IMG/VR virus record: IMGVR_UViG_3300037245_003639
DNA: 64,000 bases
Reading direction: 5' to 3' (one strand)
DNA from: a virus
How positions within the stretch are numbered: position 1 is the first letter of the stretch; the number at the start of each line of letters is the position of its first letter. The translations under genes and the position numbers were made by a program. Shown one piece after another: positions 23,736-63,613 of the stretch. Under the pieces are notes generated by a model. It made no database searches. It saw only the letters and a list, made by a program, of their open reading frames with translations, and was not told where the DNA came from.

Positions 23736-25145
23736 TTAATCTTCGGACGTATCATCGTCCGACATTTTCACCAGTCGGGGATGGAAACAAGCGATAATGT
23801 CCACAAGGTCAGTCTGAGCGTCCATGACCTTCAAAATGTCTTTATACGCTCCTGGGACTTCATCCAATCCCGCGGAAATTAGTTTGACATTCCGGTGTCG
23901 TAATTGTTCTCGGACATCAGACCAGCGATACTTTTCCTTAGTTTTTGTTCTGCTCATCGCCCGCCCCGCACCATGCGATGCCGACGATAATGATGCAGCG
24001 TTACCTTTTCCCCGAACAAGAAAACCAGGCGTTGCCATTGAGCCCGGAATGACCCCTAGAACATCCACCCCAGCGGGAGTCGCCCCTTTGCGATGGACAA
24101 TCACAGTCCTGCCATCGTGTTCCTCTCGCCACGCAAAATTATGATGGTTCTCTACCTGTAGCAGAGCATCCCACCCCAATTCACGCAATACATGATAGTG
24201 AATCAGATTATGGTTTGCTGATGCATACTCTCCAGCGAGTTCCATCGCCTTCCAGTAAGCTATGCCATCTTCATCATCCATCGACAACCACGCCAGCCTT
24301 TTATACTGAGGCGGCAGCAAGGGATGTTTCGCTCCTGCAACACGGGTGAAGTGATTGGCCACCTTCGACCCAAGCCCGCGAGAACCGCTATGCGTCAAAA
24401 TGGCTACATACTTACCAGGAGGAACATCTCCAAATTGCTCAGTGAACTCTATTTCACCAACATCGAGGAAGTGATTCCCACTGCCTGATGAACCAAGCTG
24501 ATTCCACGCTCTGTCTTTATCCACAATCCCATCAAGGATAGACCAGTCCCGATCCATTACTTCGTGCTGGCGACGACCTGAACGTTGGAATGCGGCTCCC
24601 AGACCAAAGCGGGTATGCTTCTCGATTGCTTTCGTGATTACAGTTTCTTGCTGCTTGATGGGGTCTCCAGCCGTATCGATGGGGACCACAGATAGCATCA
24701 TGCGACATGCAATGTCTACGCCCACACCATAAGGCATGACAGCATTGTCCATAGCGAGCACGCCACCGATTGGCAAACCATAACCAAGGTGAGCGTCCGC
24801 ACATAAAGCCCCTCTTATCGCAGGCGGAATACTCAGAGCGCGGTTCATCTGATCGATGGTATTTTCATCGATGAAGTCTTTGCCCCAAATGGCTAAGGGC
24901 TTATCTTCGCGGAATGTATACAGTTCTTCTGGGTGGAGAATATTGTACCATAAAGACGCCGCTTCGCCAAAGTGCGCATCGCTTCGTAAAGATGCTGGGT
25001 TGCTAAACAACTCGCGAGCAATCTTCTTGCGAGTTTCAGCACCAACTCCTGCTGTCTTCGCGGATTCCTCGGCTTTCAGCAAAACACCAATCACTGGCCC
25101 TTGCTTGAAGCCAATATTGAGCAATCCTCGTGCCTTGAGTCCCAT
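23736..25145 (-). CDS. rtcB: RtcB-family RNA ligase
   Basis: Diagnostic ENHHNFAW motif, the HNLIHYH stretch, and overall length and composition consistent with 3-phosphate/5-OH RNA ligase. Confidence 0.8.
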   Translation of the reverse strand: MGLKARGLLNIGFKQGPVIGVLLKAEESAKTAGVGAETRKKIARELFSNPASLRSDAHFGEAASLWYNILHPEELYTFREDKPLAIWGKDFIDENTIDQMNRALSIPPAIRGALCADAHLGYGLPIGGVLAMDNAVMPYGVGVDIACRMMLSVVPIDTAGDPIKQQETVITKAIEKHTRFGLGAAFQRSGRRQHEVMDRDWSILDGIVDKDRAWNQLGSSGSGNHFLDVGEIEFTEQFGDVPPGKYVAILTHSGSRGLGSKVANHFTRVAGAKHPLLPPQYKRLAWLSMDDEDGIAYWKAMELAGEYASANHNLIHYHVLRELGWDALLQVENHHNFAWREEHDGRTVIVHRKGATPAGVDVLGVIPGSMATPGFLVRGKGNAASLSSASHGAGRAMSRTKTKEKYRWSDVREQLRHRNVKLISAGLDEVPGAYKDILKVMDAQTDLVDIIACFHPRLVKMSDDDTSED

Positions 25146-29167: not shown

Positions 29168-29196
29168 ATGCTACCAGAGATAGAGAAGATTGTCAA
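29168..29196 (-). promoter_or_regulatory. sigma70-type promoter (TTGACA-17-TAGCAT)
   Basis: ccTTGACAatcttctctatctctggTAGCAT. It lies in a roughly 47-bp block that is duplicated at 29684-29730. Confidence 0.6.
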
Positions 29197-30312: not shown

Positions 30313-31257
30313 TTATCCAAAAAAGTCATCGGCGTGGATGAATTGGAATCCGCATCGAGAGGCGAAGGTGCGATCTGTCGTCTGATCCCCCACCATTATT
30401 GAGTCACTCGGGGACAGGTTATGTTTCATAATGAACTGGACGCCCAATCCGCTCATTGGTTTGCGACAGTAGCAGTTGATGGGAGCAGGGTTATGAGGAC
30501 AGTAGGCATACTCAATGTCTACCTGGAGCTTCCTATTCGTAATATCAAAGCAAGCTCTAGCTTGCTCATCAGTTGGGCTCCCCTTGGCCACTCCGCTCTG
30601 GTTGCTGACGCCGAGTAAGGCGTAGCCCTCTTTTTCATACTTACGCAGGACAGCCGCCCGCCCTGGAAGAACCACAACTTGCTTCGGGTCTGTAGGCCAC
30701 TTCAACTCTGCCCCATTAGTATCTTCGCTTACCCGGAGAGTGCCATCGTAGTCCAAGATGATAGCGGCGTTCGTCCACTTTGCGGGAAAGCCCCGCATAA
30801 ACGGTCGCCTGTCAACTCGATGGAAGCCCTCAGCTACAGTGGGCGCCTGGAACTGCTTGCGGTAATTGAACAACACAGCAGTGGGAAACATATTTGGGCT
30901 GGAATGCTTTTTGATTTCCTCAGGCATCAACAGTCTGCCTTCACGCTCGATCATCCGCACGCAAGCGTTGAATTGAGCGTCTTCGATGGTGGCTGTGAGC
31001 CAGTCACAAATGACTGTAACATCGAATTTTTTGGCAGCCTCAAGGAAGGGTTTGCGGCTCTCGACTGTAGGGAAGGTGTTGTCGAGAACAACGTCTTTGC
31101 CCGCTTTGAGAGCGGCCACCATCTTGGGAACCAAATCAGCTACTTTGCCCCCGGCCTTATCTCGATTGAGATAGACAAAACCCTGCTCTGTATAGGCCGA
31201 GGCGATTGAGGACTTACCCGCAGCGGGATAGCCCATTACCATAACGACTCGTGGCAT
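30313..31257 (-). CDS. pnkp: T4-type polynucleotide 5-kinase / 3-phosphatase
   Basis: N-terminal P-loop GYPAAGKSS (kinase) and C-terminal ILDYDGTL (the DxDGT HAD-phosphatase motif), in the same order as T4 Pnk. Confidence 0.7.
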   Translation of the reverse strand: MPRVVMVMGYPAAGKSSIASAYTEQGFVYLNRDKAGGKVADLVPKMVAALKAGKDVVLDNTFPTVESRKPFLEAAKKFDVTVICDWLTATIEDAQFNACVRMIEREGRLLMPEEIKKHSSPNMFPTAVLFNYRKQFQAPTVAEGFHRVDRRPFMRGFPAKWTNAAIILDYDGTLRVSEDTNGAELKWPTDPKQVVVLPGRAAVLRKYEKEGYALLGVSNQSGVAKGSPTDEQARACFDITNRKLQVDIEYAYCPHNPAPINCYCRKPMSGLGVQFIMKHNLSPSDSIMVGDQTTDRTFASRCGFQFIHADDFFG

Positions 31258-31264
31258 CAGATTC

Positions 31265-31489
31265 TCACGTTGCAAAGTAGATGACGACAGTAACGACAGT
31301 AATCAAAGCAGCTAGTCGAACGTAGATGCGGGCTTCCATGCCATTCACGCCATTCACGCCATTCACGACTTCCGCTCGCAGTTTCTCGTAACAATCCGGA
31401 CTAATGTCGCCGTTGGCAAGAGCTTCGGCAAAATGCACCGTGTGGCCCGGTGACTGTATCGTCTCCGCAATCAGCTTCTGGCTGTCCAT
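31265..31489 (-). CDS. hypothetical protein
   Basis: 74 aa with a C-terminal TM segment. Confidence 0.35.
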   Translation of the reverse strand: MDSQKLIAETIQSPGHTVHFAEALANGDISPDCYEKLRAEVVNGVNGVNGMEARIYVRLAALITVVTVVIYFAT

Positions 31490-46933: not shown

Positions 46934-46995
46934 CATCCTAACTTATCGGGGCTTGATTGTCAAGTCCCTGTCAAGGAGATAATTTCGTGCTGTCA
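46934..46995 (-). promoter_or_regulatory. promoter (TTGACA-17-TAGGAT) with two extra upstream TTGACA copies
   Basis: tgtcaa at 46957, 46968 and 46990. The proximal copy gives TTGACAatcaagccccgataagtTAGGAT. Confidence 0.5.
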
Positions 46996-47164: not shown

Positions 47165-49861
47165 TTAGATCAACGGTTCTTCAGGCCCAGGCCCAGACAC
47201 TGGCATACCTGGATGAAGCGTCGGCCCAGGCCCTTGCTCTGCTATCGGAATGCCAACATTACGTGGATTACGAACAACCTGGCGCAATTGCTCCCAGAGT
47301 TCCTCGTCATCTTCATCCCAATCACCATCATCCTCTTCCATTTGATTGAAACCAAGCTTTATTCTGTCTTGGAACTCATTGCGATGACGATCAAAGAGTC
47401 TAAAAGTGCGTCCGGTATCAAGTTTTTTGTGACTAATGATGTCCAAAGCAAACAATTTGCGAATTTCTTCCATTTCCGCGAAAGTATAATCTTTTGTGCG
47501 TTCGGTCAGATCGCTTATATCCAAAACGCTCAACATGTCCTGTTGGAACCTCTCTGTAATAAACTGCGTCCGTAGTTTCTCTCCCGGGGCAGAGAATGGC
47601 AGCCACAGGTCAATACGCCCTGGACGCACAAACGCTTCATCCAATTCAACCATTTCGTTGGCAGTAAAAACGAAGACGATTCCTTCGGTCGGATAGATAC
47701 CATCCATGTTCGTCAGGAAGGGCAGAATCTCATAGTTGCCTGTCTTCCGATCTTTGATCATTACATCCAAATCATCAAAGAAGACAATAGCCGAACGATT
47801 GCGGGGCGGCGTGAATAACTGCCGAACTGAACCATGCCGTCTGACATCTTCATATTCTTCAAGCGTTATTACTCGATGGTAGAATCCATGTTCAATGGCC
47901 AGATTTCGCAGCCATTTGCAAGTCATCGTGTTATGATTTATAAAGCCACCCGCAGCGAAGGAGTGAGATTCTGGCACATAGAAGTCTGCGACAAAGTTCT
48001 GCGCAGAAACGTTGCTTTTGACCTGATCCCAGAAAATATCACCGCGAGCAATATTCCGCATTCTCGCAAGAACTTCTTTCCCAATTTTAGTTTCATCTAC
48101 AAGTTGAAGAAGGCGTTCAGACTTTCCATGAGACATTCTCTGAGTTCCGTCCTTGTATCTCTGGAACTCAGCGTGCATTCGACGATTGAAATTGCCACTT
48201 AATTTACATACATCTCTGAGCAAATCTGGATCATAGGGCACAATATCATAATTAGTGTTATACTTTTTCTCCTGGAATCTGATTTGTTTCCGTGCCACGC
48301 GGAATCCGATTTCGTCGAAGAAGCATTTAGCCTCCTTGCCATTTATATCTATAGCCCAAGCACCGTTATAATCATTGGGCTTATGACGCAATGATGAGAT
48401 AATACCAAAGTTGGTGAGCATCAGATGGACTGTTCGAGCTAACTCCTCAGAGTAGGAGTCAAAACCAACTCGACCCGTTGTATCTGCCCACCCGTCAGTA
48501 TCAAACAACCCCTGCAAAAACGCTCTTACACAGTCTTGCGGAGCCTCCAAAATACAACGTGGAACAGATTTTTGACATGCTCCCGCAGAACCAAGACCCA
48601 GGAGTTTGAGGAATCCTTTGATCTGAACGCTTTCAATGGTCACCGAAGTCAACCCATCGCGTCGTTTATCATCCTGCACATGAGGAGTTACCGAGAAGAG
48701 TCTGGAGAATAAAGCCACATATTCTCTCTCTAAGTCCGCCGTGGAGAATGCGATTCTGTTCTTGGTAGTTAAATTACCATCACCAGTAAGTAACCCCAGA
48801 AGATATGCGAGATCATCATCGAGAACAGATGGCAAGGAAACAGGGAGCCTACCAGAAGCCGTATGAGCATACGAGATATCTGTTTTGTACCCGAACAACA
48901 TCATCTTACGAGGAACAGCTACAAAATCGCCCTCTTCAATCTCGTCTAGCCTTTTCCATGTAATATCCTGTCCATCTGTTACAATGACGCGATGATTCCA
49001 CGTTCCTTCAAGTTGATAGCCAAAACGAGTGCTTATCTTTTTAGTGTCTCGCCATCCGCCATTGTAAATTTGGGCAGTTTCTTCTCGATGGCCATCTTTA
49101 TTCCATATAGTTACTGACTTGTCTGTGGCGTCATCAACTGCAAGATCTTCTATAAACTCGCCAATAGGCAGCAACCCGCTATTTGTAAATACAGGAGTAT
49201 CAAGAGAACAGCACTTTCCACATCCGGGTTTTCCGCACAACAAGGCTCCCCGTTTGTAAGGAATGTTGTACTTATCGTATTGGGCCTTCTTCTCTTTACC
49301 ATCCACTAGAAAACCAATAGTGTTTTTGTAAATATCAGTCAACATTCCACGAGGCAGGACAGGTGGTTCCAAGTTAGTAGCAGAGTGCTTCTCAATCTTC
49401 CTGGCGAATTTACGTAGACTAAAAAGGTTCCGTTTCTCCACAAATATGGAGAAACTAAGGGGATGATCGTCGAATTCACCGTTCCAATGCCAAAAACGAA
49501 CGGAATCACGTTCTCTTTGTGGACGGTTACGCTGATCAGGATTGAAGATAACGTATTCCCGCAACCCTACATCATAGCGGTCATACCATGAGCCATCATG
49601 TAATGCTGCCTGGGTTTGAACTATAAGTTTACCTTTTCCCTGGTCCTTTTTAGGCAACATTCCCATGGGCATGTCAATAGCGACAGGAATTCGCCTGATA
49701 TGTTTGACATCACGGGTTTCTTTAGAATTAGTAAGCTTGAGGCTTGCAGAAAATCTGCACATACAAAGGTCATCTTGTGAGAAGTCATATTCATCACAAA
49801 GGGCCTTAACAGCATATGCAAAAACAGCTTCGGGGTACTCAGGTTCAAAAACCATATTCAA
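47165..49861 (-). CDS. AAA+ ATPase (classic-clade type) interrupted by an intein
   Basis: The Walker A motif GKPGCGK|C...HN|T is split. The second region of homology is FTANEMVELDEAFVRPGRIDL. Acidic C-terminus. Confidence 0.7.
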   Translation of the reverse strand: MNMVFEPEYPEAVFAYAVKALCDEYDFSQDDLCMCRFSASLKLTNSKETRDVKHIRRIPVAIDMPMGMLPKKDQGKGKLIVQTQAALHDGSWYDRYDVGLREYVIFNPDQRNRPQRERDSVRFWHWNGEFDDHPLSFSIFVEKRNLFSLRKFARKIEKHSATNLEPPVLPRGMLTDIYKNTIGFLVDGKEKKAQYDKYNIPYKRGALLCGKPGCGKCCSLDTPVFTNSGLLPIGEFIEDLAVDDATDKSVTIWNKDGHREETAQIYNGGWRDTKKISTRFGYQLEGTWNHRVIVTDGQDITWKRLDEIEEGDFVAVPRKMMLFGYKTDISYAHTASGRLPVSLPSVLDDDLAYLLGLLTGDGNLTTKNRIAFSTADLEREYVALFSRLFSVTPHVQDDKRRDGLTSVTIESVQIKGFLKLLGLGSAGACQKSVPRCILEAPQDCVRAFLQGLFDTDGWADTTGRVGFDSYSEELARTVHLMLTNFGIISSLRHKPNDYNGAWAIDINGKEAKCFFDEIGFRVARKQIRFQEKKYNTNYDIVPYDPDLLRDVCKLSGNFNRRMHAEFQRYKDGTQRMSHGKSERLLQLVDETKIGKEVLARMRNIARGDIFWDQVKSNVSAQNFVADFYVPESHSFAAGGFINHNTMTCKWLRNLAIEHGFYHRVITLEEYEDVRRHGSVRQLFTPPRNRSAIVFFDDLDVMIKDRKTGNYEILPFLTNMDGIYPTEGIVFVFTANEMVELDEAFVRPGRIDLWLPFSAPGEKLRTQFITERFQQDMLSVLDISDLTERTKDYTFAEMEEIRKLFALDIISHKKLDTGRTFRLFDRHRNEFQDRIKLGFNQMEEDDGDWDEDDEELWEQLRQVVRNPRNVGIPIAEQGPGPTLHPGMPVSGPGPEEPLI
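47930..49213 (-). mobile_element. intein (about 428 aa) with a LAGLIDADG homing-endonuclease domain, inserted in the P-loop of the AAA+ ATPase
   Basis: It starts at Cys217 (CSLDTPV) and ends FINHN followed by Thr. It carries two LAGLIDADG motifs (LLGLLTGDGNL and LQGLFDTDGWA). Excising it restores GKPGCGKT. Confidence 0.65.
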
Positions 49862-52053: not shown

Positions 52054-52234
52054 CGTTCCTCTCCGTCACCTTTTCCGAGACGCTATGCTATATTAGCAGT
52101 ATGAAATGGGATTGCAAGCGGATTCAGGATAAAGTTCACCGTCCAGTAAATCATCGTCCTTTAACAAAAGCTCTGATAACGTTTCTCGACAAACCTTGCA
52201 GGAATTACATCACTTTCTGAGTTACACACATATC

Positions 52235-55200
52235 ATGGAGTCCCAAATGTCCTTCCGATATCAATTCAATAAAAAAGCCATGTTTGTCCATGGCGAAGGC
52301 GACCAAATTGTTGCTTACCGCGATAAAATATGGCTGCTGAGTCGTAACGACGACGAAGCCAATGTCCCTATTATGGAAGACATCGAGAAAACGCTCGCAT
52401 TTGAGCCATTAGGAGATGTCCATGATTTGCTGGGAGCTATTAGGGACAATCGCCCTGATGTTCTGACAGGTTTTATCGAAGGTGACCAGTTGAATATCAA
52501 CGTCGGTAGCGACTGGCGTTTTGGTCGAGGGTCTCACCTTCTTCAGAAAGTCATGGAGGAACTTGGACTAAGAGAAGTCATCTATACCAACCTTGAAGGA
52601 GAGGAATACGAAACCACTCACGGTTCAGAAATCACTGGCCAAATGCCCAAGTATCTCTATCATGGAACTACATCAGAGAACGCTTTCGGCATACTGCGTT
52701 TCGGACTCGCTCCTGACAGAGCCGATACAAATTACCCCAGTAAAGGCGGTAATCCACCCATTGAACATTATGACAAAGTATTCCTCACGGAAGATATCCA
52801 GAATGCTGAGTATCACGCTTTCAATGCGGTAACTCGCGATATCCAACCTGGAATGCCTGGGCAATATGACGTTAACAACCAAGGCCGAGGATTCCCGGTT
52901 ATCTTCCAGTTTCAAATTCCTGATCCAAATCTCTTAATCGCAGATTTAGATGTTGAACATATGTCGGATACTCCTACCGGGCACTATGATTATGTGCCTG
53001 AAAGGAGAGAGCACGATCCCCAAATTAAAGAATCCCCCGAGCAATTCTCTAAGCAAGTTGGGCTTCTGGGATATAAAGGTCGTATCCCTGCGAACTTCAT
53101 TACTGACATCATGGTCTGGATCGGCGACACAGAAAAAACCTATGGCTTTGATGAGGACAACTGGCAAAGAGTAGAGGCCGAGCAACTTGAACGAGCATTG
53201 GAGTGGGGCGACATTCAAGGCATCTATTACGATCCTGAAGAGGATGAAGACTACTGTGCTGAATGCGGTAGTATGCGTGATGATGAAGGCCGCTGTGAAT
53301 GCGAGGAACCTGAAGTTGAGTCCATAGCAAGACAAGCTATGGTCAAAACCGCTCGCACGAAAAAGATAGTTAATGCACTTGCGGAAACTAAAACCGAAAG
53401 TTATTTGATTCACGATATTGACCGCTACATCTCAGATGATATTGCCATCAATATTACTTTCCAAGAAACAAAGCATCGTTATTCCGTGGGCGTATACAGC
53501 ACTAACTATAAGGTTGGAGTTTCCGGCTATCAAGAATACTGGCATTATGATCGTAGCGACCGAGCGCAGGCCCTAAAGACTTACAACTCTATCGTCGCTG
53601 TGATAGCCGAAATGGTAGAAGAAATCGAGTTCAATGCTATCCCGCACACTTTGGCTAAGCCTTTTTTGGTAAAACGTCTCGATAAAATCGACGTGGAGCA
53701 CAAAGAACGAAGTGGCGTGTATCATTACAATTGGTTCGCCGCAGAGGCTGAAAAAGAAGAAGACTGGCGCTCAACCATTTATGGCAAACGGTATCCTGTT
53801 GCTCCTTACTTAGAGCGGTTAGACCACAACTGGAATGAGCCCGGGCAAAGCAGTGCTATTGAAACTAAAGGCCAAAGCAGGCACAAAACATATCAATTCC
53901 GTTATGCGTCAAGCAAGACAAGTCTGACTAAAGACGGAGGCAAGGGTCTAGGATTCTTACTCGGTTTGTCACCTGGATTATTGGGTGCCTTTCTAATGTG
54001 GGCTGCTCATATTAAGGGGCTACCACAAGAAGAAGTTATTCAGCAGGCCAATGAGAATCCTCAAATGCTCGCTCCTATTGTTCATGAGTTTAAGGAGTAC
54101 GCTGAAGTTCCCCTGTACGAGGAACCACTAGAAGCCATCACAGCCCCTACCGAGACCACTTCTTTTGACGATGCTTTAGCCGTCACATTGCAACATGAAG
54201 GTGGCTACGTCAAAAATGAGGTTGAGGAATCTTACCGAGGTGTTCGACGAATAACCTACGAGAGATATCTGGAGCAGCGGGGTTTACCGACTGACAATAT
54301 AGACATGCATAACATTCCAGAAGAGCATCTTCAGGATATTTATCGCACAATGTATTGGGATGCTTCAGGGGCAAACGAATTATCTCCACTTTTGGCTCAG
54401 CAAGTATTTGATTTTGCAGTCAATTCTGGCTCAGGCCGAGCAACACGTTATCTTCAAGGGATTATTGGAGTTGGTCAGGACGGGATTTTCGGCCCAAAAA
54501 CAAAAGCAGCCACAGAAGCCTATATCACCAAACATGGCGAGGAAGCCTTGGCCCAAGAGTACATTCATCGCCGTCGTGCTTTTATAACAGAGTCTGAGAA
54601 GATTCCTGACAAACTCAAGCCAGGGTTATTGAACCGTATTGATGCTATGGAACAATTGATTTCTCCCGCGAAAGAGATGCCCATCAAACCAAACTCTCCC
54701 GAACGTCGTTCCAGGGATGTTCCTGAACGTTTGATTCGTCCATTCTGGAGCAACCAGATTCATATACTGAATGATGGCAAAGAGGCTCAAGCCAAACCTA
54801 TGGCCTTAGAGCCAGGGGCTTACAAAGACGAGCCCATTCCGCACAGGTGGGTCAGCCATTTAGATGCCGCTCCGACGCCATATGGCATAATCCCTCAAAA
54901 ACAAGATCCGAAAGAAATTGAAGAGATGTATGCAGGCGTTCACGCTACTCCCAATATCAACATCGCCGCAATTTATGCGAACAACAGGGGGACAAAAAAA
55001 GATCCACCCGTTGTGATTGAGTTTGCCACTAAGCAATCTTGGGAACCTGACGTGGATATCGATACTCCAAGCGCTCGCGCTCAAATGGAGAGTATTCACG
55101 AACAAATTCAGGAAATCGATGGCCTTGGAGAACATATTGAGAGGTTCGAAGAGACCAACGAAATCGACTGGGAATATATCGAGGAGGTGTTCGATAAAAT

Positions 55201-55909
55201 CGAATCTAACGACGAATATCCCGATGTCTATGAGACCGATTATTCCAATTTTGATGTAAGTGACTACTTGCAAGAGAATGCTCAACGCGCTACACTCTCG
55301 GACTTGGCTGAGTTTTTCAGGACATTCTACGCGGAAGAAGATGACAGACAAGGCGTCTTTGATTTCCAACCTCCCCGGCACCTATTGGGTTTCTACGAAT
55401 GGTATCTAGCACCACTTTTCACAGGTCATGGAACCCTCGATGCGCGAATCGACGCTTGGTTTCTGAACCAGATGCGGTTTATGGACCCAATAAATGAGGA
55501 CGAAATCCTTGCTATTTACGAAGTTACCCGCTATAATCCAGAGGTATATGACTCCTGGAATCCCGAGACCGGCGAGGATGACGCTCGGGAGGAAGACGAT
55601 GAGGGTCGTCAGCTTGTCTCTCTGGAAGAAACGAATTATTGGGAACCGTCATTATCAAAGATTTGGGAATCGCCAACTGCCGATGCCAACCGCCAAAAAC
55701 AAACCTCTTACTACCATGGAACATCACTCAACCGAGCCCAAAAGGCCCTCAGTGGCATTCTTGATGTCCGCTCTGCCGCTTCAGAACTTGTGGTCAAACA
55801 TGGCCGGCATTGGGGAAAGATTGCCACGGAATTACGGCGGCGCGGCTTGCCCAAAACAGTGATAGCGAGCGTAAATGAGCAGTTTTTGAGAAATTTACGC
55901 ACCGCCTAA
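52235..55909 (+). CDS. giant multidomain protein with a GH108-type lysozyme and a peptidoglycan-binding domain, flanked by PARP-like (ART) segments
   Basis: The central LAVTLQHEGGYVKN...YRGV is the GH108 EGGY signature. It is followed by a PG_binding_3-like region (FDFAVNSG...GQDGIFGPKTKAA). YLYHGTTSENAFGILRFGL at the N-terminus and YYHGTSLNRAQKALSGIL near the C-terminus resemble the H-G-S/T...GIL catalytic start of the PARP at 59513. The start could be 52235 or 52247. Confidence 0.55.
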   Translation: MESQMSFRYQFNKKAMFVHGEGDQIVAYRDKIWLLSRNDDEANVPIMEDIEKTLAFEPLGDVHDLLGAIRDNRPDVLTGFIEGDQLNINVGSDWRFGRGSHLLQKVMEELGLREVIYTNLEGEEYETTHGSEITGQMPKYLYHGTTSENAFGILRFGLAPDRADTNYPSKGGNPPIEHYDKVFLTEDIQNAEYHAFNAVTRDIQPGMPGQYDVNNQGRGFPVIFQFQIPDPNLLIADLDVEHMSDTPTGHYDYVPERREHDPQIKESPEQFSKQVGLLGYKGRIPANFITDIMVWIGDTEKTYGFDEDNWQRVEAEQLERALEWGDIQGIYYDPEEDEDYCAECGSMRDDEGRCECEEPEVESIARQAMVKTARTKKIVNALAETKTESYLIHDIDRYISDDIAINITFQETKHRYSVGVYSTNYKVGVSGYQEYWHYDRSDRAQALKTYNSIVAVIAEMVEEIEFNAIPHTLAKPFLVKRLDKIDVEHKERSGVYHYNWFAAEAEKEEDWRSTIYGKRYPVAPYLERLDHNWNEPGQSSAIETKGQSRHKTYQFRYASSKTSLTKDGGKGLGFLLGLSPGLLGAFLMWAAHIKGLPQEEVIQQANENPQMLAPIVHEFKEYAEVPLYEEPLEAITAPTETTSFDDALAVTLQHEGGYVKNEVEESYRGVRRITYERYLEQRGLPTDNIDMHNIPEEHLQDIYRTMYWDASGANELSPLLAQQVFDFAVNSGSGRATRYLQGIIGVGQDGIFGPKTKAATEAYITKHGEEALAQEYIHRRRAFITESEKIPDKLKPGLLNRIDAMEQLISPAKEMPIKPNSPERRSRDVPERLIRPFWSNQIHILNDGKEAQAKPMALEPGAYKDEPIPHRWVSHLDAAPTPYGIIPQKQDPKEIEEMYAGVHATPNINIAAIYANNRGTKKDPPVVIEFATKQSWEPDVDIDTPSARAQMESIHEQIQEIDGLGEHIERFEETNEIDWEYIEEVFDKIESNDEYPDVYETDYSNFDVSDYLQENAQRATLSDLAEFFRTFYAEEDDRQGVFDFQPPRHLLGFYEWYLAPLFTGHGTLDARIDAWFLNQMRFMDPINEDEILAIYEVTRYNPEVYDSWNPETGEDDAREEDDEGRQLVSLEETNYWEPSLSKIWESPTADANRQKQTSYYHGTSLNRAQKALSGILDVRSAASELVVKHGRHWGKIATELRRRGLPKTVIASVNEQFLRNLRTA

Positions 55910-56135: not shown

Positions 56136-57113
56136 ATGGCGACGGCAATAAGGAAAAGAAAACAGCCCCCGGCTAAGCCCCAAATTCCTTTGCAAGGAAG
56201 AAGGGCCAACCGAATAGCTCTGGACTTTACAAGAGGTCAGGGACCAAATCGCCGCACATTTTACAAGTGCGGCGTACTCGAAGCCGCAAGACGGCATCAG
56301 CTTCCGCTAAGAGTGGTTGATAAGAATGGCGTTGTACACCTCATTCCGCCTGACCGCATGGTTCACCGACCCCAACTCGATGACAAATTCGGTGATGCCC
56401 ATGAATTGTCAGGACAGGGCAAATACATCGACAACGATGCCCTCAGCGGGCGAGGCCAAAACACAACCGTAACCGGCGCTCAATATGTCAACCCGTATCT
56501 GGCCGAAGACCGTTCCTACCATACCATCATTCAGTGCTTCCATCATCTTGCAAAACAGACCATCACCAGATTGTCGGCTCGCTTTGCGCGTGATCGCGTC
56601 AACGGTCAACATCTGCTGTGGCAAGGTAAATCCGCTGTGGACGGAGCAGTAGCTGTCTCACCCTGGATCACCGAGGACGAATTGTGGGAGCTGGCCAACA
56701 ACCTCAATCCGGGTTTGAAGGCTCTACTCCGCAAATCCAAAGCCGCCATCAAGAAGGGCGTCAAGAAGCATCAGACGCCGAGAGGCAAATTCGGCGACAA
56801 CCTAAATGTTCTTCGTCGTGCGCGACGGACATTCCGGACAGCGACAGGTGAAACCGAGTATCGCGGCGGTGAGACACCTTACGGAGTCCCGTTGGAGCAA
56901 TGTGGTTTTGCCATCGACATGTTCTTCCTCACGACAGGCTACGACGAGGGTCTAGAAGTAGGCGAATACCACTTCCGTCTCGCCTATGGTCGAAATACGC
57001 CGTGGATACTGTATTATCGTGACTGGCAAGGCATGGGAACCCAAGACCGCATCGCGTTCCTCAACAACAAAATCCGCACAGACGTAATCCAGCGATACGA
57101 TCAGCAGACTTAG
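56136..57113 (+). CDS. hypothetical protein (325 aa)
   Basis: GGAG RBS, no confident motif. Confidence 0.45.
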   Translation: MATAIRKRKQPPAKPQIPLQGRRANRIALDFTRGQGPNRRTFYKCGVLEAARRHQLPLRVVDKNGVVHLIPPDRMVHRPQLDDKFGDAHELSGQGKYIDNDALSGRGQNTTVTGAQYVNPYLAEDRSYHTIIQCFHHLAKQTITRLSARFARDRVNGQHLLWQGKSAVDGAVAVSPWITEDELWELANNLNPGLKALLRKSKAAIKKGVKKHQTPRGKFGDNLNVLRRARRTFRTATGETEYRGGETPYGVPLEQCGFAIDMFFLTTGYDEGLEVGEYHFRLAYGRNTPWILYYRDWQGMGTQDRIAFLNNKIRTDVIQRYDQQT

Positions 57114-57529
57114 TTGGGCTCGCCCGGTGATACGGCGTGTTCGCCGCCGGGCATGACTGCTACTGTTAGATGTAGTGGGACTAAAGGTTGTGCAGGCAAC
57201 CCAAGAGCCTGACGAATCTGCAATAAACCTTCACATTCTACCGGCAACCAGAGATGCTTGTCATTCGTGACAAGTTGGTGGGCATATCCAAACTGCATCT
57301 CTCTGTTCTGGTACGGTAGAATCTTTCCTTCCTCTACCAGTTCTTGTCTCATAACTGTAATATGCGGCCCCCATGCTGGAGGCATCATGGCCGCATAGCG
57401 ACAAGTGAACTTGCGACATAGGTAACGATGATACCGAGCAAGCTCAGTGCAACATTCCACGAGCATCCACCAGTAACCGGGTCTAGCCCGAGATGGAATC
57501 ACTTTAATGTTTCCGCTTGACAATCTCAT
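57110..57529 (-). CDS. 2H phosphoesterase superfamily protein (LigT/CPDase or Acb1-like fold)
   Basis: Two H-x-T-x motifs (GPHITVM and PLHLTVAV). This is a minus-strand gene inside the plus block and is leaderless behind promoter 57536..57564. Confidence 0.5.
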   Translation of the reverse strand: MRLSSGNIKVIPSRARPGYWWMLVECCTELARYHRYLCRKFTCRYAAMMPPAWGPHITVMRQELVEEGKILPYQNREMQFGYAHQLVTNDKHLWLPVECEGLLQIRQALGLPAQPLVPLHLTVAVMPGGEHAVSPGEPN

Positions 57530-57545
57530 GGCTACAGCGTATTCT
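57517..57545 (+). promoter_or_regulatory. sigma70-type promoter (TTGACA-17-TATTCT)
   Basis: cgcTTGACAatctcatggctacagcgTATTCT. Its -10 overlaps the -10 of the opposing minus promoter. Confidence 0.55.
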
Positions 57546-57564
57546 ACACGAGTAAGATTGTCAA
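57536..57564 (-). promoter_or_regulatory. sigma70-type promoter (TTGACA-17-TACGCT) for the 2H phosphoesterase gene
   Basis: ccaTTGACAatcttactcgtgtagaaTACGCT. Confidence 0.5.
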
Positions 57565-57577
57565 TGGAGACCTTAGC

Positions 57578-58054
57578 ATGGCTGTTGAATTTACACATGG
57601 CGGAAAGACCTACTCGGTGGTCTTTGACACAAAGCAACATCGAACCAGGAATCTCCAGAAAAGAGGGATTCTACAACCCCGCAAAACCCAAGCCAAGCGG
57701 ACTGCGGACCCGCTAACCCGCCGATGTACTCATTGCACCGTTAAGGATGGCGAAAAGCCGATTGCCAACGGGATGGCAGTCTGTAGTCCCACGGACAAGT
57801 TCGATAACAGGACTGGCCAGAAGATGGCATTACGGCGAGCGATTAGTCGGGCTCGACAAGACAGAACCCGTCAACTAATAGTTGACAGGACGCTGCCGAC
57901 TGCCGAAAACATTGTCTCTCTTGACAAGGGACTAACGCCAGTTTTAGATCGAGATTGGGCCGCAGAAGCGTGGCAAGCTCTATTTGATTCGCAAACCATC
58001 AACGCCAGAGCCGCGCGACAACGTGCAAAGAAACAGACCGAGAAACACGCTTGA
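57578..58054 (+). CDS. hypothetical basic protein
   Basis: GGAG RBS, 158 aa. Confidence 0.45.
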   Translation: MAVEFTHGGKTYSVVFDTKQHRTRNLQKRGILQPRKTQAKRTADPLTRRCTHCTVKDGEKPIANGMAVCSPTDKFDNRTGQKMALRRAISRARQDRTRQLIVDRTLPTAENIVSLDKGLTPVLDRDWAAEAWQALFDSQTINARAARQRAKKQTEKHA

Positions 58055-59457: not shown

Positions 59458-59486
59458 TTGACAATCTTCCGAAAACTTGGTAATCT
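59458..59486 (+). promoter_or_regulatory. sigma70-type promoter (TTGACA-17-TAATCT)
   Basis: ggcTTGACAatcttccgaaaacttggTAATCT, then ggagatcctgcATG. Confidence 0.6.
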
Positions 59487-59512
59487 TCCGTAGTGTCAAT
59501 CGGAGATCCTGC

Positions 59513-61114
59513 ATGGCTACCAAACTTGGCAGAAAAGCGTATCCATCTGGCGTCAGCCCAGGCGATTTTGAGTGCTTTGGCCCAGTTGCTACAAAAGATG
59601 GTGAATTCGACGACGCCCGGCTCGCTGACCTGGGATGTTTCAACCAGGAAGGCGTAGATTCCAACAAATATTACCATGGGTCCATATGTAAAGCGAATGG
59701 CAAGTGGTATGTATACTTCCAGTGGGGACGGACGGGAGGCACGGGTGATTTCCAGTTCTTCGAGTGCTATGATGAGCATGATGCTCAGGAACAGTTCACC
59801 AAACAACTACGCTCGAAGAATGATAAACGGGGTGAATGGGTGATGAAAGGGGGACTCGGCAAAGTCCTCCGGGCCAAGCCCAATAAAGACTGCTATTTGG
59901 TTCGCCCGCTGGCTACCCGAGACGATACCAGCCCTGGATTGCCAGGAGCAATTGCTGTTACCACAGGTGACGTGAAGGTTAAGAAGACCGTCAAGAAAAC
60001 ATCGAAGAAGAAAACGAAAACTCCGTCTCGCACTTTCGATGCTGAAACGATCAGTCTCATGCGAGCAATGAATGTTGCTGCCGTCCAGTTTACAAAGAAA
60101 AGCATCCAAGGCGGCACCATTCCCACGCAAGCGTCTATCGAGGAAGCCCGAACGGTTCTTATCGAAGCCCAAAAACGGCTGGTCGTTGTAGGCGACAACG
60201 TAAAATCCCAAATCGCTGATACAGAGCTTCGCCAGTTGACCTATCACCTGTACGGCAGGGTTCCCAAAATCAAGCGGGTAGGAGCCCCCGAGAGCGAGTG
60301 GATTCTAAGCCAGGATAACATCTTTACTTGGACCGCTGACTTGGATGCGTTCGAAAACGCTCTGGCCGTTGCTACAGTCGAAATCGAGGAAACCCAAACT
60401 GACAAAGACCCGCTCGGTGGGATGAAGATCGACATGCGGCACCTGCCTCTCGGTGACAAGCAAGGTGATTTCATCCGTAAATGGATGCCTGACGCTTCGC
60501 TTGACCGCCATTCGTGGGTTGGGGACATGAAGATCAAACATGTTTGGGAAGTCACTCGCCACGATGACCCCAAACGATTTGCTGGAGCTATTGACCGAAT
60601 CACTAAGGGGCGAGTGGACACAAGGCATAAGCCAATCAAACAGCCCCGAAAGCGAATCGACTTGGACACTCAGGAAGCCAAGCGTTACGAGGCTGCCAAT
60701 GTCGGAATGCTTTTCCACGGCACTCGTAGCGTCAACGTCCCGGGCATCCTGCGCACAGGATTGCGTTTACCCAACCAACTTGTTGGCGTCGTCATTACAG
60801 GAGCCATGTTTGGCCCTGGTATTTATTGGGCTGACGACTGGAAGAAGAGTGCGGGATACACGAGCCTCAGTGGTTCATACTGGAGTTCTGGCAGCGGCGG
60901 GGTGCGCGGTCGCAAAGCATTTATGTTCGTGGCCGACGTTGCACTTGGGACTGCCCACGTAGCAAACGGATACCGTGGTTATACGGCGGCGCCAAGGGGC
61001 TGTCACTGTGTTTTCGGGAAAGCGGGTAGTAGCGGAGTTGCAAATAACGAGTGGATCGTCTATACTAACGAGCAAAATCGTCTTCGCTATCTCGTGGAGT
61101 TTGATGCCAAATAG
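59513..61114 (+). CDS. WGR-domain poly(ADP-ribose) polymerase-like protein
   Basis: WGR motif WYVYFQWGRTGGTG. The catalytic core LFHGTRSVNVPGILRTGLRLP...AMFGPGIYWADDWKKSAGY...NEWIVY parallels the PARP1 H-G-S / GKGIYFAD / YNEYIVY triad. Confidence 0.75.
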   Translation: MATKLGRKAYPSGVSPGDFECFGPVATKDGEFDDARLADLGCFNQEGVDSNKYYHGSICKANGKWYVYFQWGRTGGTGDFQFFECYDEHDAQEQFTKQLRSKNDKRGEWVMKGGLGKVLRAKPNKDCYLVRPLATRDDTSPGLPGAIAVTTGDVKVKKTVKKTSKKKTKTPSRTFDAETISLMRAMNVAAVQFTKKSIQGGTIPTQASIEEARTVLIEAQKRLVVVGDNVKSQIADTELRQLTYHLYGRVPKIKRVGAPESEWILSQDNIFTWTADLDAFENALAVATVEIEETQTDKDPLGGMKIDMRHLPLGDKQGDFIRKWMPDASLDRHSWVGDMKIKHVWEVTRHDDPKRFAGAIDRITKGRVDTRHKPIKQPRKRIDLDTQEAKRYEAANVGMLFHGTRSVNVPGILRTGLRLPNQLVGVVITGAMFGPGIYWADDWKKSAGYTSLSGSYWSSGSGGVRGRKAFMFVADVALGTAHVANGYRGYTAAPRGCHCVFGKAGSSGVANNEWIVYTNEQNRLRYLVEFDAK

Positions 61115-61180
61115 CGGTAGCGAGTGCGTCAGCGTAGACGGGCTCGTAGCGTTTTGTTTCACACAGCTTGGAGGTTAGTC

Positions 61181-62566
61181 ATGCCTTACGGAAATTCAGG
61201 ACCAGCAATCTCAAAACGCACCATTTTCGGAGGTGCAGCGGCAGTCTTCTGCATTATTATTTTAGTTGTCGTCCTCATAGGCGGCTTCGGGATGAACAAT
61301 CTCAGCGACTGGCAGGTCAAACAGAGCATCAATGGCCACATTACGGTCATTGACAACCCCGGCTGGTACATGAAGATGTTCGCCAGCGTTTGGACGTATC
61401 CCCGTGCCTATCAGACCGAATACGGCACTGGTGATGATGACAGCGGCAACCAGACAGTGCGGGTCACCTTCAACGACGGCGGTACGGCTCAAGTTAGTTC
61501 GATGATCCGTTTCGGCACGCCCAAGAGGGAAGAGACCCGCTTGCTCTCTCACCGAGAATTTGGCAGCATCGGAAACATTGCCTCCTCTGTGCGAGCCCAT
61601 CTGGTAAACTGCATGAAGGCGTCCGCGCCGTTGATGTCGTCATCGGAACACCAATCGGCGCGTAAAGCCGAGTTCACGCAGATTGTGGACGATATGCTCC
61701 GCAAGGGCATCTACCAGATGCGACAGGTCGAGACGCAACTGAAAGATCAGACAGACGAAACCGGTGCTCCAATCACAGTCATGGCTACCGAAGTCATACG
61801 TGATGAAAACGGCCTGCCAGAGATCGCCCAAACATCGCCGTTACTCACCTACGATATCGAAGTCTTGCAGTTTTCGATCACTTCGACCAACTATGACGAG
61901 ATCACCTTGCAGAAGTTCGCAGCCAAGAAAGAATCGTACCTGCGGGCTGAGCAGTCCAAGGCCGAACGTGAGGAAGAAGTTCAGCAGCGATTGATGGTTA
62001 TCGAGAAGGGCAAACGCGAACTCGCCGAAGTTGAAGCTGCGGCAAATAAAGAGATGATGACTGCCACAGTTAACGCCGAGCGAGACGCCAGCGTTGCCAG
62101 AATCGATGCCCAGAAGAAAGTCACAGTGGCAGAGCAAACTAAGCTTGAAGCTGAGACTGCTGCCAGTCAAAAGGTTGCAGTGGCCGAACTTCAACTCGCA
62201 GAGGCTAAGCTGATTGCCCAATCTGCTGATGAACAAGCCAAGGCCATCCGCGTCCTGGCGGCTGCTGAGGAAGAGAAGATTCAAAAGGGTGGAGCCATCA
62301 CCGAACACGAGCGTGTCCTCGCCCAAATCGAATGGGACGGACGAGCCAAGGTAATGGAAGCCTTCGCTCAGATGAGCCCAAACACGCTTGTTCCCAGCGT
62401 TATGATCGACGGCGGGGGCGGCGCGGGATCTGGTACCAGCATGAAAGATGATCTGATTGTTCTTAAGCTTCTGCAAGAACTTGGCATGCTCAATATGTCC
62501 CAGGCACGCCCTGGTGCTGGAAAGATGATTCCCAGCAGCGCGGCAGCTCCTGAGATCAGCGAGTAG
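61181..62566 (+). CDS. SPFH/flotillin-like membrane protein
   Basis: N-terminal TM helix, a band-7-like region, then a long Ala/Glu-rich coiled coil (EAE repeats) as in flotillin or YqiK. Confidence 0.55.
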   Translation: MPYGNSGPAISKRTIFGGAAAVFCIIILVVVLIGGFGMNNLSDWQVKQSINGHITVIDNPGWYMKMFASVWTYPRAYQTEYGTGDDDSGNQTVRVTFNDGGTAQVSSMIRFGTPKREETRLLSHREFGSIGNIASSVRAHLVNCMKASAPLMSSSEHQSARKAEFTQIVDDMLRKGIYQMRQVETQLKDQTDETGAPITVMATEVIRDENGLPEIAQTSPLLTYDIEVLQFSITSTNYDEITLQKFAAKKESYLRAEQSKAEREEEVQQRLMVIEKGKRELAEVEAAANKEMMTATVNAERDASVARIDAQKKVTVAEQTKLEAETAASQKVAVAELQLAEAKLIAQSADEQAKAIRVLAAAEEEKIQKGGAITEHERVLAQIEWDGRAKVMEAFAQMSPNTLVPSVMIDGGGGAGSGTSMKDDLIVLKLLQELGMLNMSQARPGAGKMIPSSAAAPEISE

Positions 62567-62587: not shown

Positions 62588-62947
62588 ATGCGAATGTTCG
62601 CTTACCTTATACTGCTGGGAATCGCTGCTTTGATTTCCTTCCTGGCCTGGATTATTATCTTGGCCAAGAGAGAATATCAGTACAAGCGGCAATTCAGACA
62701 AGCCCTGGACCGTGAACAGTCGAAGCGTGATACCATCTGGAAAGAGGCGAGAGCCATTACGGATATGGTGAACCTGTACATGGGCGTGGTCTGCAAACAC
62801 GGCCCAAATTCGCCAACGGCAAAGGCTTTCCGCTTCGGAACAGATAGTAAGCTGATGAAGAAGCTCCACGGTGACGATGAGGCTATGGAGGCGTTCAATC
62901 AGCAATGTGACATCATTGACGCTACTTACCGACAAGCTGTGAGATGA
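62588..62947 (+). CDS. membrane-anchored hypothetical protein
   Basis: N-terminal TM, 119 aa, GGAGG RBS. Confidence 0.45.
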   Translation: MRMFAYLILLGIAALISFLAWIIILAKREYQYKRQFRQALDREQSKRDTIWKEARAITDMVNLYMGVVCKHGPNSPTAKAFRFGTDSKLMKKLHGDDEAMEAFNQQCDIIDATYRQAVR

Positions 62948-63333
62948 TGACAACGAACCCAAAAATCAAGTTCGTTTGTCCCACCTGTAGGGAAGATCGA
63001 ATTGTTGAACTTCGCTCTCAGGTGGACCTTAAAACCGAAGTGGCGGGGGTCTTTGTAACAAGAGACCCCGCCACCAATGGGACTAAGTGCAGTCTCGAAC
63101 AGGGTAATGAAGGCGGACGTACTGACGGAAAAGTAACTGGCTTCTGTTGTGACGCCTGCGGGTTTATCATCAAAACCCAACGACGACTTCTCGGGACGTG
63201 GCAGCGCAAACATTACAATAAGCCCGAGTTTTCAACCCCGAAACCAATTACCACCCCCAGAGGCTTGTATCTTTGGCTGAAACGCAACAATATGATCGAG
63301 GAGCCAGAAAATGCAATTGCAACTACCGCCTAG
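62944..63333 (+). CDS. zinc-ribbon protein
   Basis: CPTCRED...CCDACG. Confidence 0.45.
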   Translation: MMTTNPKIKFVCPTCREDRIVELRSQVDLKTEVAGVFVTRDPATNGTKCSLEQGNEGGRTDGKVTGFCCDACGFIIKTQRRLLGTWQRKHYNKPEFSTPKPITTPRGLYLWLKRNNMIEEPENAIATTA

Positions 63334-63559
63334 CGCCATCTTCGGGATTATTCTTTTCGCTCTATCATTCGTCCATTTAATTGCAGCCATAATAATGGGT
63401 CAGATAGCTGCCAAAAAGCAAGGGGAGCACGTAGGCGACTATGGCTGGACAATCGGCTGCGTTGTATCCGCTATCGGAGCACTAGTCTACGGGATTTTGT
63501 TTGCCCGGTTCCTGTACAACCTAGGCGAGAGTTTCTTTGGTCATTCATGTACAATCTAG
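63311..63559 (+). CDS. small membrane protein
   Basis: Two TM helices. Confidence 0.4.
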   Translation: MQLQLPPSAIFGIILFALSFVHLIAAIIMGQIAAKKQGEHVGDYGWTIGCVVSAIGALVYGILFARFLYNLGESFFGHSCTI

Positions 63560-63584: not shown

Positions 63585-63613
63585 TTGACAATCTCTGGTT
63601 AATGTCTTAGTGT
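63585..63613 (+). promoter_or_regulatory. sigma70-type promoter (TTGACA-17-TAGTGT)
   Basis: atccTTGACAatctctggttaatgtctTAGTGT. Confidence 0.5.

Follow-up and report, generated by a model that had tools for sequence, protein, structure and literature searches.

A PARP1/2/3-type ADP-ribosyltransferase with WGR and helical regulatory domains in a huge phage, and its relatives in Planctomycetota

Introduction

PARP1, PARP2 and PARP3 are central DNA-damage sensors in eukaryotes. In PARP2 and PARP3 the WGR domain together with the catalytic region (CAT) suffices for break-dependent activation (PMC4081085), and both enzymes respond to breaks that carry a 5' phosphate (PMC4081085, PMC8190142). Bacteria have comparable proteins: HaPARP of Herpetosiphon aurantiacus and CdPARP of Clostridioides difficile consist of a WGR domain, a helical regulatory region and a PARP domain and are active in vitro, with HaPARP activity being DNA-dependent (PMC8120803). 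Planctomycetota are absent from the bacterial phyla named in the survey summarised there (PMC8120803). Among viral ADP-ribosyltransferases (ARTs) the PARP family is one of the commonest (Iyer and colleagues, PMC9503650), and PARPs of jumbo phages have been noted repeatedly (PMC7824862, PMC9503650, PMC11662467), also as part of a 'NAD-jumbo phage' pattern in which genes for the synthesis of nicotinamide adenine dinucleotide (NAD+) are paired with PARP1-like genes (PMC11662467). Phage ARTs of the T4 Alt/Mod type belong to the R-S-E clade, are NAD+-dependent and are used during infection (PMC8120803, PMC7824862). In the literature that we searched only two bacterial WGR-PARPs had been assayed, and the role of the architecture in which a WGR domain, a helical regulatory domain (HD) and an ART domain follow one another (WGR-HD-ART) is almost unknown in prokaryotes and their viruses. 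Here, we analyze a PARP gene at positions 59513-61114 of a 64-kb stretch of IMG/VR virus record IMGVR_UViG_3300037245_003639, referred to below as the window.

An earlier note on this DNA, made from the letters alone, had claimed a genuine WGR-PARP with the PARP1-type His, Tyr and Glu (H-Y-E) catalytic positions in canonical order on a phage-like element. Both parts of this claim are borne out below, the first by four sequence motifs, Pfam matches, the invariance of the catalytic residues in 121 of 121 sequences, a profile alignment to PARP1 and the predicted fold. Our favored reading, to which we give a probability of roughly 0.6, is that the gene encodes a regulated, NAD+-dependent PARP1/2/3-type ART of a huge phage, which likely acts in the DNA metabolism of the phage itself.

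Domain Architecture of the Phage PARP

The gene and the predicted parts of its product are as follows.

59513-61114, plus strand: PARP gene, 533 amino acids (aa) and a stop codon; from the list of open reading frames (ORFs), the Pfam PARP and WGR matches and, for the start, the homologue alignment
59502-59505, plus strand: ribosome-binding site GGAG, 7 nt before the ATG, read from the sequence
59549-59917, plus strand: WGR domain (about aa 13-135); from Pfam, an alignment with PARP2 (aa 13-104), the PARP1 profile alignment and the fold
59933-60040, plus strand: linker rich in Lys, Thr and Ser (aa 141-176), predicted to be disordered and variable in length among homologues
60041-60397, plus strand: helical regulatory domain (HD, PARP_reg-like; aa 177-295); from the helices of the model and the profile alignment to the PARP1 HD
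60398-61111, plus strand: ART domain (aa 296-533), with H402, Y438, S446/Y449 and E513

The start codon is the ATG at 59513: all homologues open with M-A/G-x-K-L, and the GGAG lies 7 nt upstream. A longer start at TTG 59477 is possible on paper and is ruled out by the N-termini of the homologues and by the GGAG in front of 59513.

Four motifs mark the protein as a PARP with a WGR domain, namely QWGRTGG (W71-G72-R73, nt 59723-59731), FHGTRSVNVPGIL (FHGTRS, with H402 at nt 60716-60718), FGPGIYWAD (Y438, nt 60824-60826) and NNEWIVY (E513, nt 61049-61051). The Pfam model of the PARP catalytic domain (PF00644) matches with E = 8e-21 and 74.9 bits against a cutoff of 26.7, and the WGR model (PF05406) matches aa 49-105 with E = 3e-8 and 34 bits against a cutoff of 22; this match, together with the order of the motifs, is far beyond chance. 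When the single sequence was compared by phmmer with the sequences of the PDB, PARP2 and PARP1 came first (PARP2 as the best match, E = 8e-11), and H402, Y438 and E513 fell on WHGSR, GIYFAD and NEYIVY, respectively. No NCBIfam model matched the protein.

Within the WGR domain, N51 (in an NKYY motif), W71-G72-R73, K102 and Y128 are invariant or nearly so. The linker that follows has a predicted local distance difference test score (pLDDT) below 50 at aa 157-170 and a mean identity to homologues of 30%. The HD, which the earlier note did not mention, is seen in the model as helices at aa 177-290; the single sequence has no match to Pfam PARP_reg at E <= 0.01. In the ART domain, a conserved loop rich in Gly and Ser, SYWxxGxGxVxGR (aa 454-467, 60872-60913), comes after the Ser-Tyr helix of the NAD+ pocket and could help to shape the acceptor site. 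As judged from its sequence and predicted structure, ORF 59513-61114 is an intact PARP1/2/3-type WGR-HD-ART enzyme with the minimal layout of PARP2 and PARP3.

Conservation and Predicted Fold

Conservation was scored in an alignment of the window PARP with 120 homologues, 121 sequences in all. H402, G403, Y438, K445, S446, Y449 and E513 of the ART domain and N51, Y54 and R73 of the WGR domain are identical in every sequence, and the other two residues of the WGR motif are nearly so (W71 in 118 and G72 in 119 of the 121). Mean identity to the 120 homologues is 61% for the WGR domain, 52% for the HD and 58% for the ART domain. The protein is thus under strong purifying selection, with catalytic, NAD+-pocket and WGR-HD contact residues fixed. 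The invariant G403, S446 and Y449 belong to the nicotinamide pocket, where KKSAGY aligns to SKSANY; their PARP1 equivalents are G863, S904 and Y907. In the WGR domain, N51 aligns with N116 of PARP2, a contact from WGR to CAT that is required for activation (PMC4770219). The invariant Y128 (D-C-Y-L-V) probably corresponds to PARP2 Y188, which contacts the 5' end of DNA (PMC4770219), a match by motif position only, as the hidden Markov model alignment stops at residue 104. Three cysteines of the WGR region, Cys21, Cys42 and Cys127 (59573-59575, 59636-59638 and 59891-59893), are also present in 119-121 of the 121 homologues, and Cys21 aligns with a Cys of PARP2 (DPEC).

Relationship to PARP1 is visible at the level of profile and of fold. 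With E = 8e-26, a profile built from 36 members of the family matches PARP1 in four collinear segments, which cover the WGR domain, the HD with the start of the ART domain, the ART core and the strand with the catalytic Glu; profile positions 213-354 align to the PARP1 HD and ART start, with LYSRIPK against FYTLIPH. The AlphaFold2 model, built on the 36-member family alignment, has a mean pLDDT of 86.4 and a predicted TM-score (pTM) of 0.84. Its best Foldseek match in the PDB is 4dqy_C, the WGR-CAT part of PARP1 on a double-strand break (E = 3e-21, TM-score 0.70, target-normalised). Isolated PARP1 chains of HD and ART likewise reach a TM-score of about 0.70 (target-normalised), and PARP2/HPF1 bridging a break is also among the best matches. 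A substitution of the catalytic His, Tyr or Glu or a loss of the WGR fold, either of which would speak against a WGR-PARP, was found neither in the 121 sequences nor in the predicted fold.

These data also bear on the idea that the protein is catalytically dead or has been repurposed as a DNA-binding regulator, with its WGR domain used as in MolR-like transcription factors. WGR domains do occur in transcription factors of bacteria and jumbo phages (PMC7824862), but all 121 sequences agree at H402, G403, Y438, S446, Y449 and E513 and the model of the ART fold is of high confidence, and we regard this idea as barely credible.

Distribution in Phages and Planctomycetota

Searching 1.84 billion cluster representatives with a profile gave 3978 matches at E <= 1e-3, which represent the PARP superfamily at large, 123 matches at E <= 1e-30 and about 30 full-length matches (about 480-580 aa) at E < 1e-100. 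Several hundred metagenomic proteins belong to the subfamily of the window PARP, and the contigs that carry them reach 595 kb. The full-length homologues are 52-78% identical to the window protein and include a copy in the 595-kb phage LR756511 (53%) and copies on IMG/VR viral contigs of 340-530 kb. Among 50,697 GenBank phage records, LR756511 is the only one with a full-length match; seven cultured phages of Klebsiella, Xanthomonas and Stenotrophomonas match in the ART domain only. The view of the earlier note that such proteins are rare outside eukaryotes was therefore too strong, given the metagenomic members, the PARPs of jumbo phages, the annotated PARP of the cultured Klebsiella phage vB_KpM_FBKp34 and the bacterial PARPs (PMC8120803).

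When one genome of each prokaryotic species was scanned with short subfamily-specific peptide patterns, which limits the result to this PARP subfamily, 46 PARP loci were found, 43 of them in records titled Planctomycetota. The families represented are Pirellulaceae, Gemmataceae, Planctomycetaceae and Isosphaeraceae. Among the records are an isolate, Neorhodopirellula pilleata Pla100, two chromosomes (7.8 and 8.3 Mb) and a contig of 4.0 Mb. Full-length PARPs from Planctomycetota are 42-53% identical to the window PARP. At the four loci examined, the neighbors are cellular genes (Ser/Thr kinases, polyprenyl synthetase, FlgI, an MFS transporter, cytochrome c), and the GC content of the PARP loci (56-67%) follows that of the host. 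In nine of the 46 genome loci a gene for a Macro-domain protein (Pfam E = 1e-45) lies directly 3' of the PARP gene, and a tenth locus has one nearby.

L046, L037, L039, L050, L051, L053, L057, L066 and L068: the PARP-Macro loci

In N. pilleata Pla100 (L046, 5001-7123) the stop codon of PARP overlaps the start of Macro. From its gene content, the PARP-Macro arrangement in Planctomycetota looks like a chromosomal writer-eraser pair. No paper linking PARP with Planctomycetota was found in the literature searched. In a neighbor-joining tree the window PARP groups with L029, L025 and L027 and then with the IMG/VR copies, and the genome copies form a nested clade; the tree was midpoint-rooted and carries no support values, and it is taken as a hint only and not relied on for the direction of transfer.

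With so many cellular relatives, the window itself might be a piece of a Planctomycetota chromosome or of another cellular element, and its PARP a host gene. Apart from the 43 Planctomycetota records and the cellular neighbors at the loci examined, it would be in line with this that the 64-kb window showed no gene for a capsid, portal or terminase protein. The window, however, shares no neighbor genes with the chromosomal loci of Planctomycetota, and it carries genes of phage families, an ATPase with an intein and a dense, strand-coherent TTGACAATC motif, while its nearest PARPs are on the large IMG/VR viral contigs and in LR756511 and the tree groups it with the viral copies. We consider a cellular origin of the window very improbable, and the phage-like element of the earlier note is supported by its phage-family genes and by these nearest PARPs. 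The phage-family genes are those for a GH108 endolysin-type protein, endonuclease VII, an HNH endonuclease, a sigma factor, an Srd-like anti-sigma factor and phrog_11908; the window also codes for an ATP-dependent ligase domain, RtcB, a Pnkp-like kinase-phosphatase, PP2C and radical SAM proteins. No tRNA was found in the window, and megablast of 19 kb against GenBank phages returned no near-identical phage DNA. A protein identical to the SPFH protein encoded next to PARP is on record on a contig of 403,172 bp. From 58832 to its end, the window coincides base for base with the opening 5,169 bases of a 14.9-kb Logan contig, which continues past the window, and the PARP protein is identical on the Logan and JGI contigs. 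On its gene content, we take the window to belong to the non-structural part of a huge phage of about 400 kb.

NAD+ Supply and Possible Function

Genes of NAD+ metabolism lie on both sides of the PARP gene.

17622-18494, minus strand: NAD kinase, in the window
L001 7398-9179 and 9479-10486, PARP strand: NadE and Prs, past the window end

The last two lie in the stretch 5-7 kb beyond the window end on the identical contig and were assigned as glutamine-dependent NAD+ synthase (NadE; NF010588, 524 bits against a cutoff of 479) and ribose-phosphate diphosphokinase, or phosphoribosyl pyrophosphate (PRPP) synthetase (Prs; NF002320, 335 bits against a cutoff of 297). This gene set matches the 'NAD-jumbo phage' pattern (PMC11662467).

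In the reading that we favor, the WGR domain would bind a strand break or end in DNA (or RNA), and contacts between WGR and HD would release the autoinhibitory helical domain, upon which the H-Y-E active site would use NAD+ to ADP-ribosylate the enzyme itself, proteins close by and possibly the ends of nucleic acids. In this way the enzyme would flag breaks, nicks or ends within a phage genome that is very large and that replicates and recombines, and the phage-encoded NAD+ synthase, PRPP synthetase and NAD kinase would supply the NAD+. We infer nucleic-acid-dependent activation, the targets and the biological role from homology with PARP1-3 (PMC4081085, PMC4770219, PMC8190142) and with HaPARP and CdPARP (PMC8120803). 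A role in the phage's own DNA metabolism is favored because PARP is among the best conserved genes of its neighborhood (first or second in each comparison), because the whole regulatory apparatus has been kept, and because the cellular cousins resemble housekeeping writer-eraser modules. Such conservation suits a conserved substrate (DNA, NAD+) better than a fast-evolving conflict effector. The genes for processing of DNA or RNA ends in the window (RtcB, Pnkp-like, ligase-domain, endonuclease VII) are counted for this reading as well.

The main rival, a distinctly less probable reading, is that of an effector for host takeover or counter-defense, where the WGR domain would serve only as a switch at DNA ends such as those of injected phage DNA or of the degraded host chromosome. 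Such a role has been offered for the PARPs of jumbo phages (PMC7824862) and for viral ARTs in general (PMC9503650). About 3.6 kb upstream of PARP lies a gene for a 1237-aa protein of the polyvalent type, a type thought to be injected, and the block from this gene to PARP is kept in four relatives. The lack of a nearby eraser gene would fit an irreversible attack, and a sigma-70-like promoter such as that of the PARP gene would allow the host polymerase to express it early. On the other side, conflict effectors usually evolve fast (PMC9503650), whereas this PARP is unusually conserved across otherwise diverged phages, a complete autoinhibitory HD and the residue of the WGR-HD contact have been retained, and the copies in Planctomycetota, which lie among cellular genes and often near Macro, suggest signaling of a housekeeping type.

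The end-processing genes bear also on a third reading, in which phosphorylated DNA or RNA ends are the main substrate and the enzyme would cap the ends of the phage genome, shielding them from host exonucleases, or would mark broken tRNA or other RNA for RtcB and Pnkp. The minimal WGR-HD-ART layout is that of PARP2 and PARP3 with their activation by 5'-phosphorylated breaks (PMC4081085, PMC8190142), PARP-family enzymes are able to ADP-ribosylate DNA and RNA ends (PMC6582358), with modification of phosphorylated ends in vitro by PARP2, PARP3 and other PARPs, and the window has genes for RtcB, Pnkp-like, 2H-phosphoesterase-like and ligase-domain proteins. None of these repair genes, however, adjoins PARP or stays syntenic with it across relatives, and no sequence feature separates PARPs directed to proteins from those directed to nucleic acids. 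We hold a nucleic-acid end modifier to be improbable.

Several points weigh against a role of the phage PARP in break signaling as we favor it. The H-Y-E triad is no guarantee of polymer synthesis, PARP3 being a mono-transferase, and Asn511 of the phage protein occupies the position of PARP1 Tyr986. The enzyme may make chains or add single ADP-ribose units, H-Y-E being necessary for chains and insufficient. A repair gene that consistently adjoins PARP was not found across the compared loci, and the literature searched held no biochemical evidence for any phage PARP. Finally, no eraser of the Macro, PARG or ARH type was found among about 90 ORFs of the 64-kb window and the following 7 kb (about 71 of about 403 kb), the Macro protein of Planctomycetota as a query had no match in either the window or the phage loci, and tblastn found no eraser in the related 595-kb phage LR756511. 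For the phage, these results give no support to a reversible signaling cycle such as the one in eukaryotes or in Planctomycetota.

Taken further, and as a speculation that we think unlikely to hold in full, a widespread clade of huge phages, probably infecting Planctomycetota, would run its own eukaryote-style system for sensing DNA breaks, with a PARP2-like writer under strong purifying selection, without a dedicated eraser and fed by phage NAD+ synthesis, and would have exchanged the enzyme with Planctomycetota, where it would have turned into a PARP-Macro module. If true, this would be the first DNA-damage-type PARP signaling shown in a virus of bacteria, and the history of PARP1-3 would gain a large branch in prokaryotes and viruses that has yet to be surveyed. 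As a member of a large and highly conserved family in phages of about 350-600 kb, placed next to phage genes for NAD+ synthesis, the gene is a convenient test case for the questions whether giant phages sense breaks in their own DNA and why they invest in making NAD+.

Gene Neighborhood

Directly downstream of PARP lies a gene for a membrane protein, which the earlier note had described as flotillin-like.

61181-62566, plus strand: SPFH (Band 7, flotillin/HflK/prohibitin-like) membrane protein, 461 aa, with GGAGG 7 nt before the ATG

That description was right. The protein matches phrog_11908 with E = 2e-45, and 23 of its 28 homologues match Pfam Band_7 (PF01145), although the window copy itself has no Pfam match at E <= 0.01. 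Its AlphaFold2 model has a transmembrane helix (aa 12-35), a beta-rich domain (aa 36-238) and a helix of about 125 residues (aa 240-366), and Foldseek places it with HflK/C, prohibitin, flotillin, erlin and stomatin (E = 2e-9 to 1e-5). Single-sequence and profile searches against the sequences of the PDB gave nothing useful, and the identity as an SPFH protein is settled by the Pfam matches of the homologues and the predicted fold.

The pairing of PARP with SPFH is found elsewhere only in L029 (PARP 78% identical) and L027 (65%). In L025 and L026 (PARP 69%), a LAGLIDADG gene and a gene for a 742-aa protein are found downstream of PARP instead. No SPFH homologue was found within 10 kb of PARP in L030, and tblastn searches with 21 neighbor proteins found none within 10 kb in 22 IMG/VR loci and none within 5 kb in the 46 genome loci. 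A functional PARP-SPFH operon as a general feature is rejected on the absence of the pairing in most relatives. The co-transcription of the two genes put forward in the earlier note is qualified by this absence and by a hairpin that separates them. The LAGLIDADG homing endonuclease lies directly 3' of PARP (L025 11680-12495, L026 5851-6666), and about 4 kb later both loci have genes for VWA and Band_7 proteins; in phage XacN1 a VWA gene comes right after PARP (L077 3059-3709).

Upstream, genes for the 1237-aa polyvalent-type protein and for proteins of 325, 148 and 213 aa precede PARP, in a block that is kept in relatives down to L030 (56%). In the 22 IMG/VR loci, almost no neighboring genes are still detectable around PARP. 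The 1237-aa protein (52196-55909, plus strand) contains a GH108 lysozyme and a peptidoglycan-binding domain (aa 662-798). Its aa 131-176, inside the region that matches phrog_11974, contain a PARP-like His motif, YLYHGTTSENAFGIL, with a sub-threshold Pfam E of 0.017; phmmer of aa 1-330 against the PDB found nothing. This protein may be a second, possibly injected, ART. PADLOC gave no match for the PARP, SPFH, polyvalent or 2H-like proteins.

Further from PARP, the window holds a set of genes for the repair of RNA or DNA ends.

23736-25145, 30313-31275 and 57110-57640, minus strand: end-repair set (RtcB, Pnkp-like, 2H-like)

The RtcB ligase has a Pfam E of 4e-78, the Pnkp-like protein matches AAA_33 and PNK3P, and the 2H-phosphoesterase-like assignment is weak. 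Batch scans placed the ATP-dependent ligase domain among the ORFs of 25-52 kb and endonuclease VII within 0-52 kb. The ATPase mentioned above is an 898-aa AAA protein (47165-49861, minus strand) with an intein and a LAGLIDADG domain (matches to Intein_splicing, LAGLIDADG_3 and AAA).

Transcription Signals

The promoter of the PARP gene was recognized by sequence reading, a regular-expression scan, its motif family and relatives.

59458-59486, plus strand: sigma-70-like promoter of the PARP gene

It consists of a -35 element TTGACA (59458-59463), a 17-nt spacer with TG at 59478-59479, and a -10 element TAATCT (59481-59486), 27 nt before the ATG. The earlier note had placed the gene behind its own consensus promoter. 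A promoter of its own, with a perfect TTGACA and a 17-nt spacer, stands; the consensus does not extend to the TG-extended -10, which agrees at three of six positions and was for that reason passed over by a generic scan. In the three closest relatives, L025, L027 and L029, a promoter TTGACA-N17 followed by TATACT, TATATT or TATCTT is found at the same place before PARP, and more distant relatives have another recurrent motif upstream of the gene.

The -35 element belongs to a longer motif, TTGACAATC, of which the window has 20 copies against 0.79 expected (about 25-fold); none of 100 shuffles reached 20. It is usually followed by TGnTAnnnT at 17 nt and tracks the coding strand, being on the minus strand at 1-47 kb, where the genes are on that strand, and mostly on the plus strand past 57 kb.

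1374-1382, 29188-29196 and 46955-46963, minus strand: copies of TTGACAATC, examples
57517-57525, 59458-59466 and 63585-63593, plus strand: copies of TTGACAATC, examples

The TTGACAATC sites look like a phage-wide promoter family, and the PARP gene has, on this pattern, its own sigma-70-like promoter as one of its members. Another copy (57556-57564, minus strand) lies inside the long 2H ORF, the true start of which is therefore probably further downstream. The window also codes for two sigma-70 region-4 proteins in addition to the Srd-like anti-sigma factor.

61114-61159, plus strand: interrupted 14-bp hairpin followed by UUUUGUUU, directly after the PARP stop codon, from RNA folding
62588-62947, 62944-63333 and 63311-63559, plus strand: three small genes with no family matches, before the TTGACAATC promoter at 63585

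The hairpin has a centroid energy of -20 kcal/mol, and the z-score of the whole 81-nt stretch (-0.31) is not significant; a scan for consensus terminators did not report it. Hairpin and UUUUGUUU are a possible intrinsic terminator, which would probably be leaky. In close relatives, the gap between PARP and SPFH is just 12-26 nt, with no room for a hairpin. As no further TTGACAATC promoter follows PARP on the plus strand before 63585, transcripts from the PARP promoter would either end at the hairpin or read through SPFH and the three small genes.

Comparison With Known Systems

Human PARP2 and PARP3 have the same order of WGR, HD and ART as the phage PARP, and neither they nor the phage protein have zinc fingers or a BRCT domain. 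They share with it the H-Y-E triad, the Ser and Tyr residues for NAD+, the WGR motif and the Asn of the NKYY motif, at about 18-21% identity in structural alignments. In the phage PARP the basic disordered segment separates WGR from HD, whereas it is N-terminal in PARP2 and PARP3, and in the phage setting no HPF1 or PARG partner was found. Human PARP1 is the best match by profile and by fold, collinear over WGR, HD and ART; the identity is low and the phage protein is without the Zn1-Zn3 and BRCT domains of PARP1. The SYWxxGxGxVxGR loop is present in the phage PARP but not in PARP1 or PARP2.

The bacterial HaPARP and CdPARP have a like layout by description and pair with a poly(ADP-ribose) glycohydrolase (PMC8120803), whereas the phage PARP has no eraser nearby. 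The PARPs of Planctomycetota belong to the same family over their full length and differ in setting, which is cellular and often includes a Macro partner, while the phage copy is without a nearby partner.

Among cultured phages, the closest counterparts are the PARPs of Klebsiella phage vB_KpM_FBKp34 (QQV91759.1, 428 aa), for which the GenBank note lists WGR, PARP regulatory and PARP catalytic domains, and of Xanthomonas phage XacN1 (BBA65562.1, 423 aa), an example cited in PMC7824862. Both come from phages of Proteobacteria with genomes of 141-385 kb and are about 100 aa shorter than the window PARP. The FBKp34 protein is 42% identical to it over the ART core and has a GxYWxxGSG loop in common with it. 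The N-terminal two-thirds of both proteins, in contrast, have no detectable BLASTP similarity to the window PARP, and hhalign covers columns 241-530 only. The T4 Alt/Mod-type enzymes are R-S-E mono-transferases without WGR or HD (PMC9503650), whereas the phage PARP is of the H-Y-E clade: the Arg, Ser-x-Ser and Glu motif was not found in it, and the model that matched was that of PARP and not one of the Alt/VIP2 type.

WGR-HD-PARP proteins are thus already on record in bacteria and in cultured phages, and the window PARP is no new class. Less familiar are the extent of this subfamily, how strongly it has been conserved in huge phages and the fact that Planctomycetota chromosomes share it.

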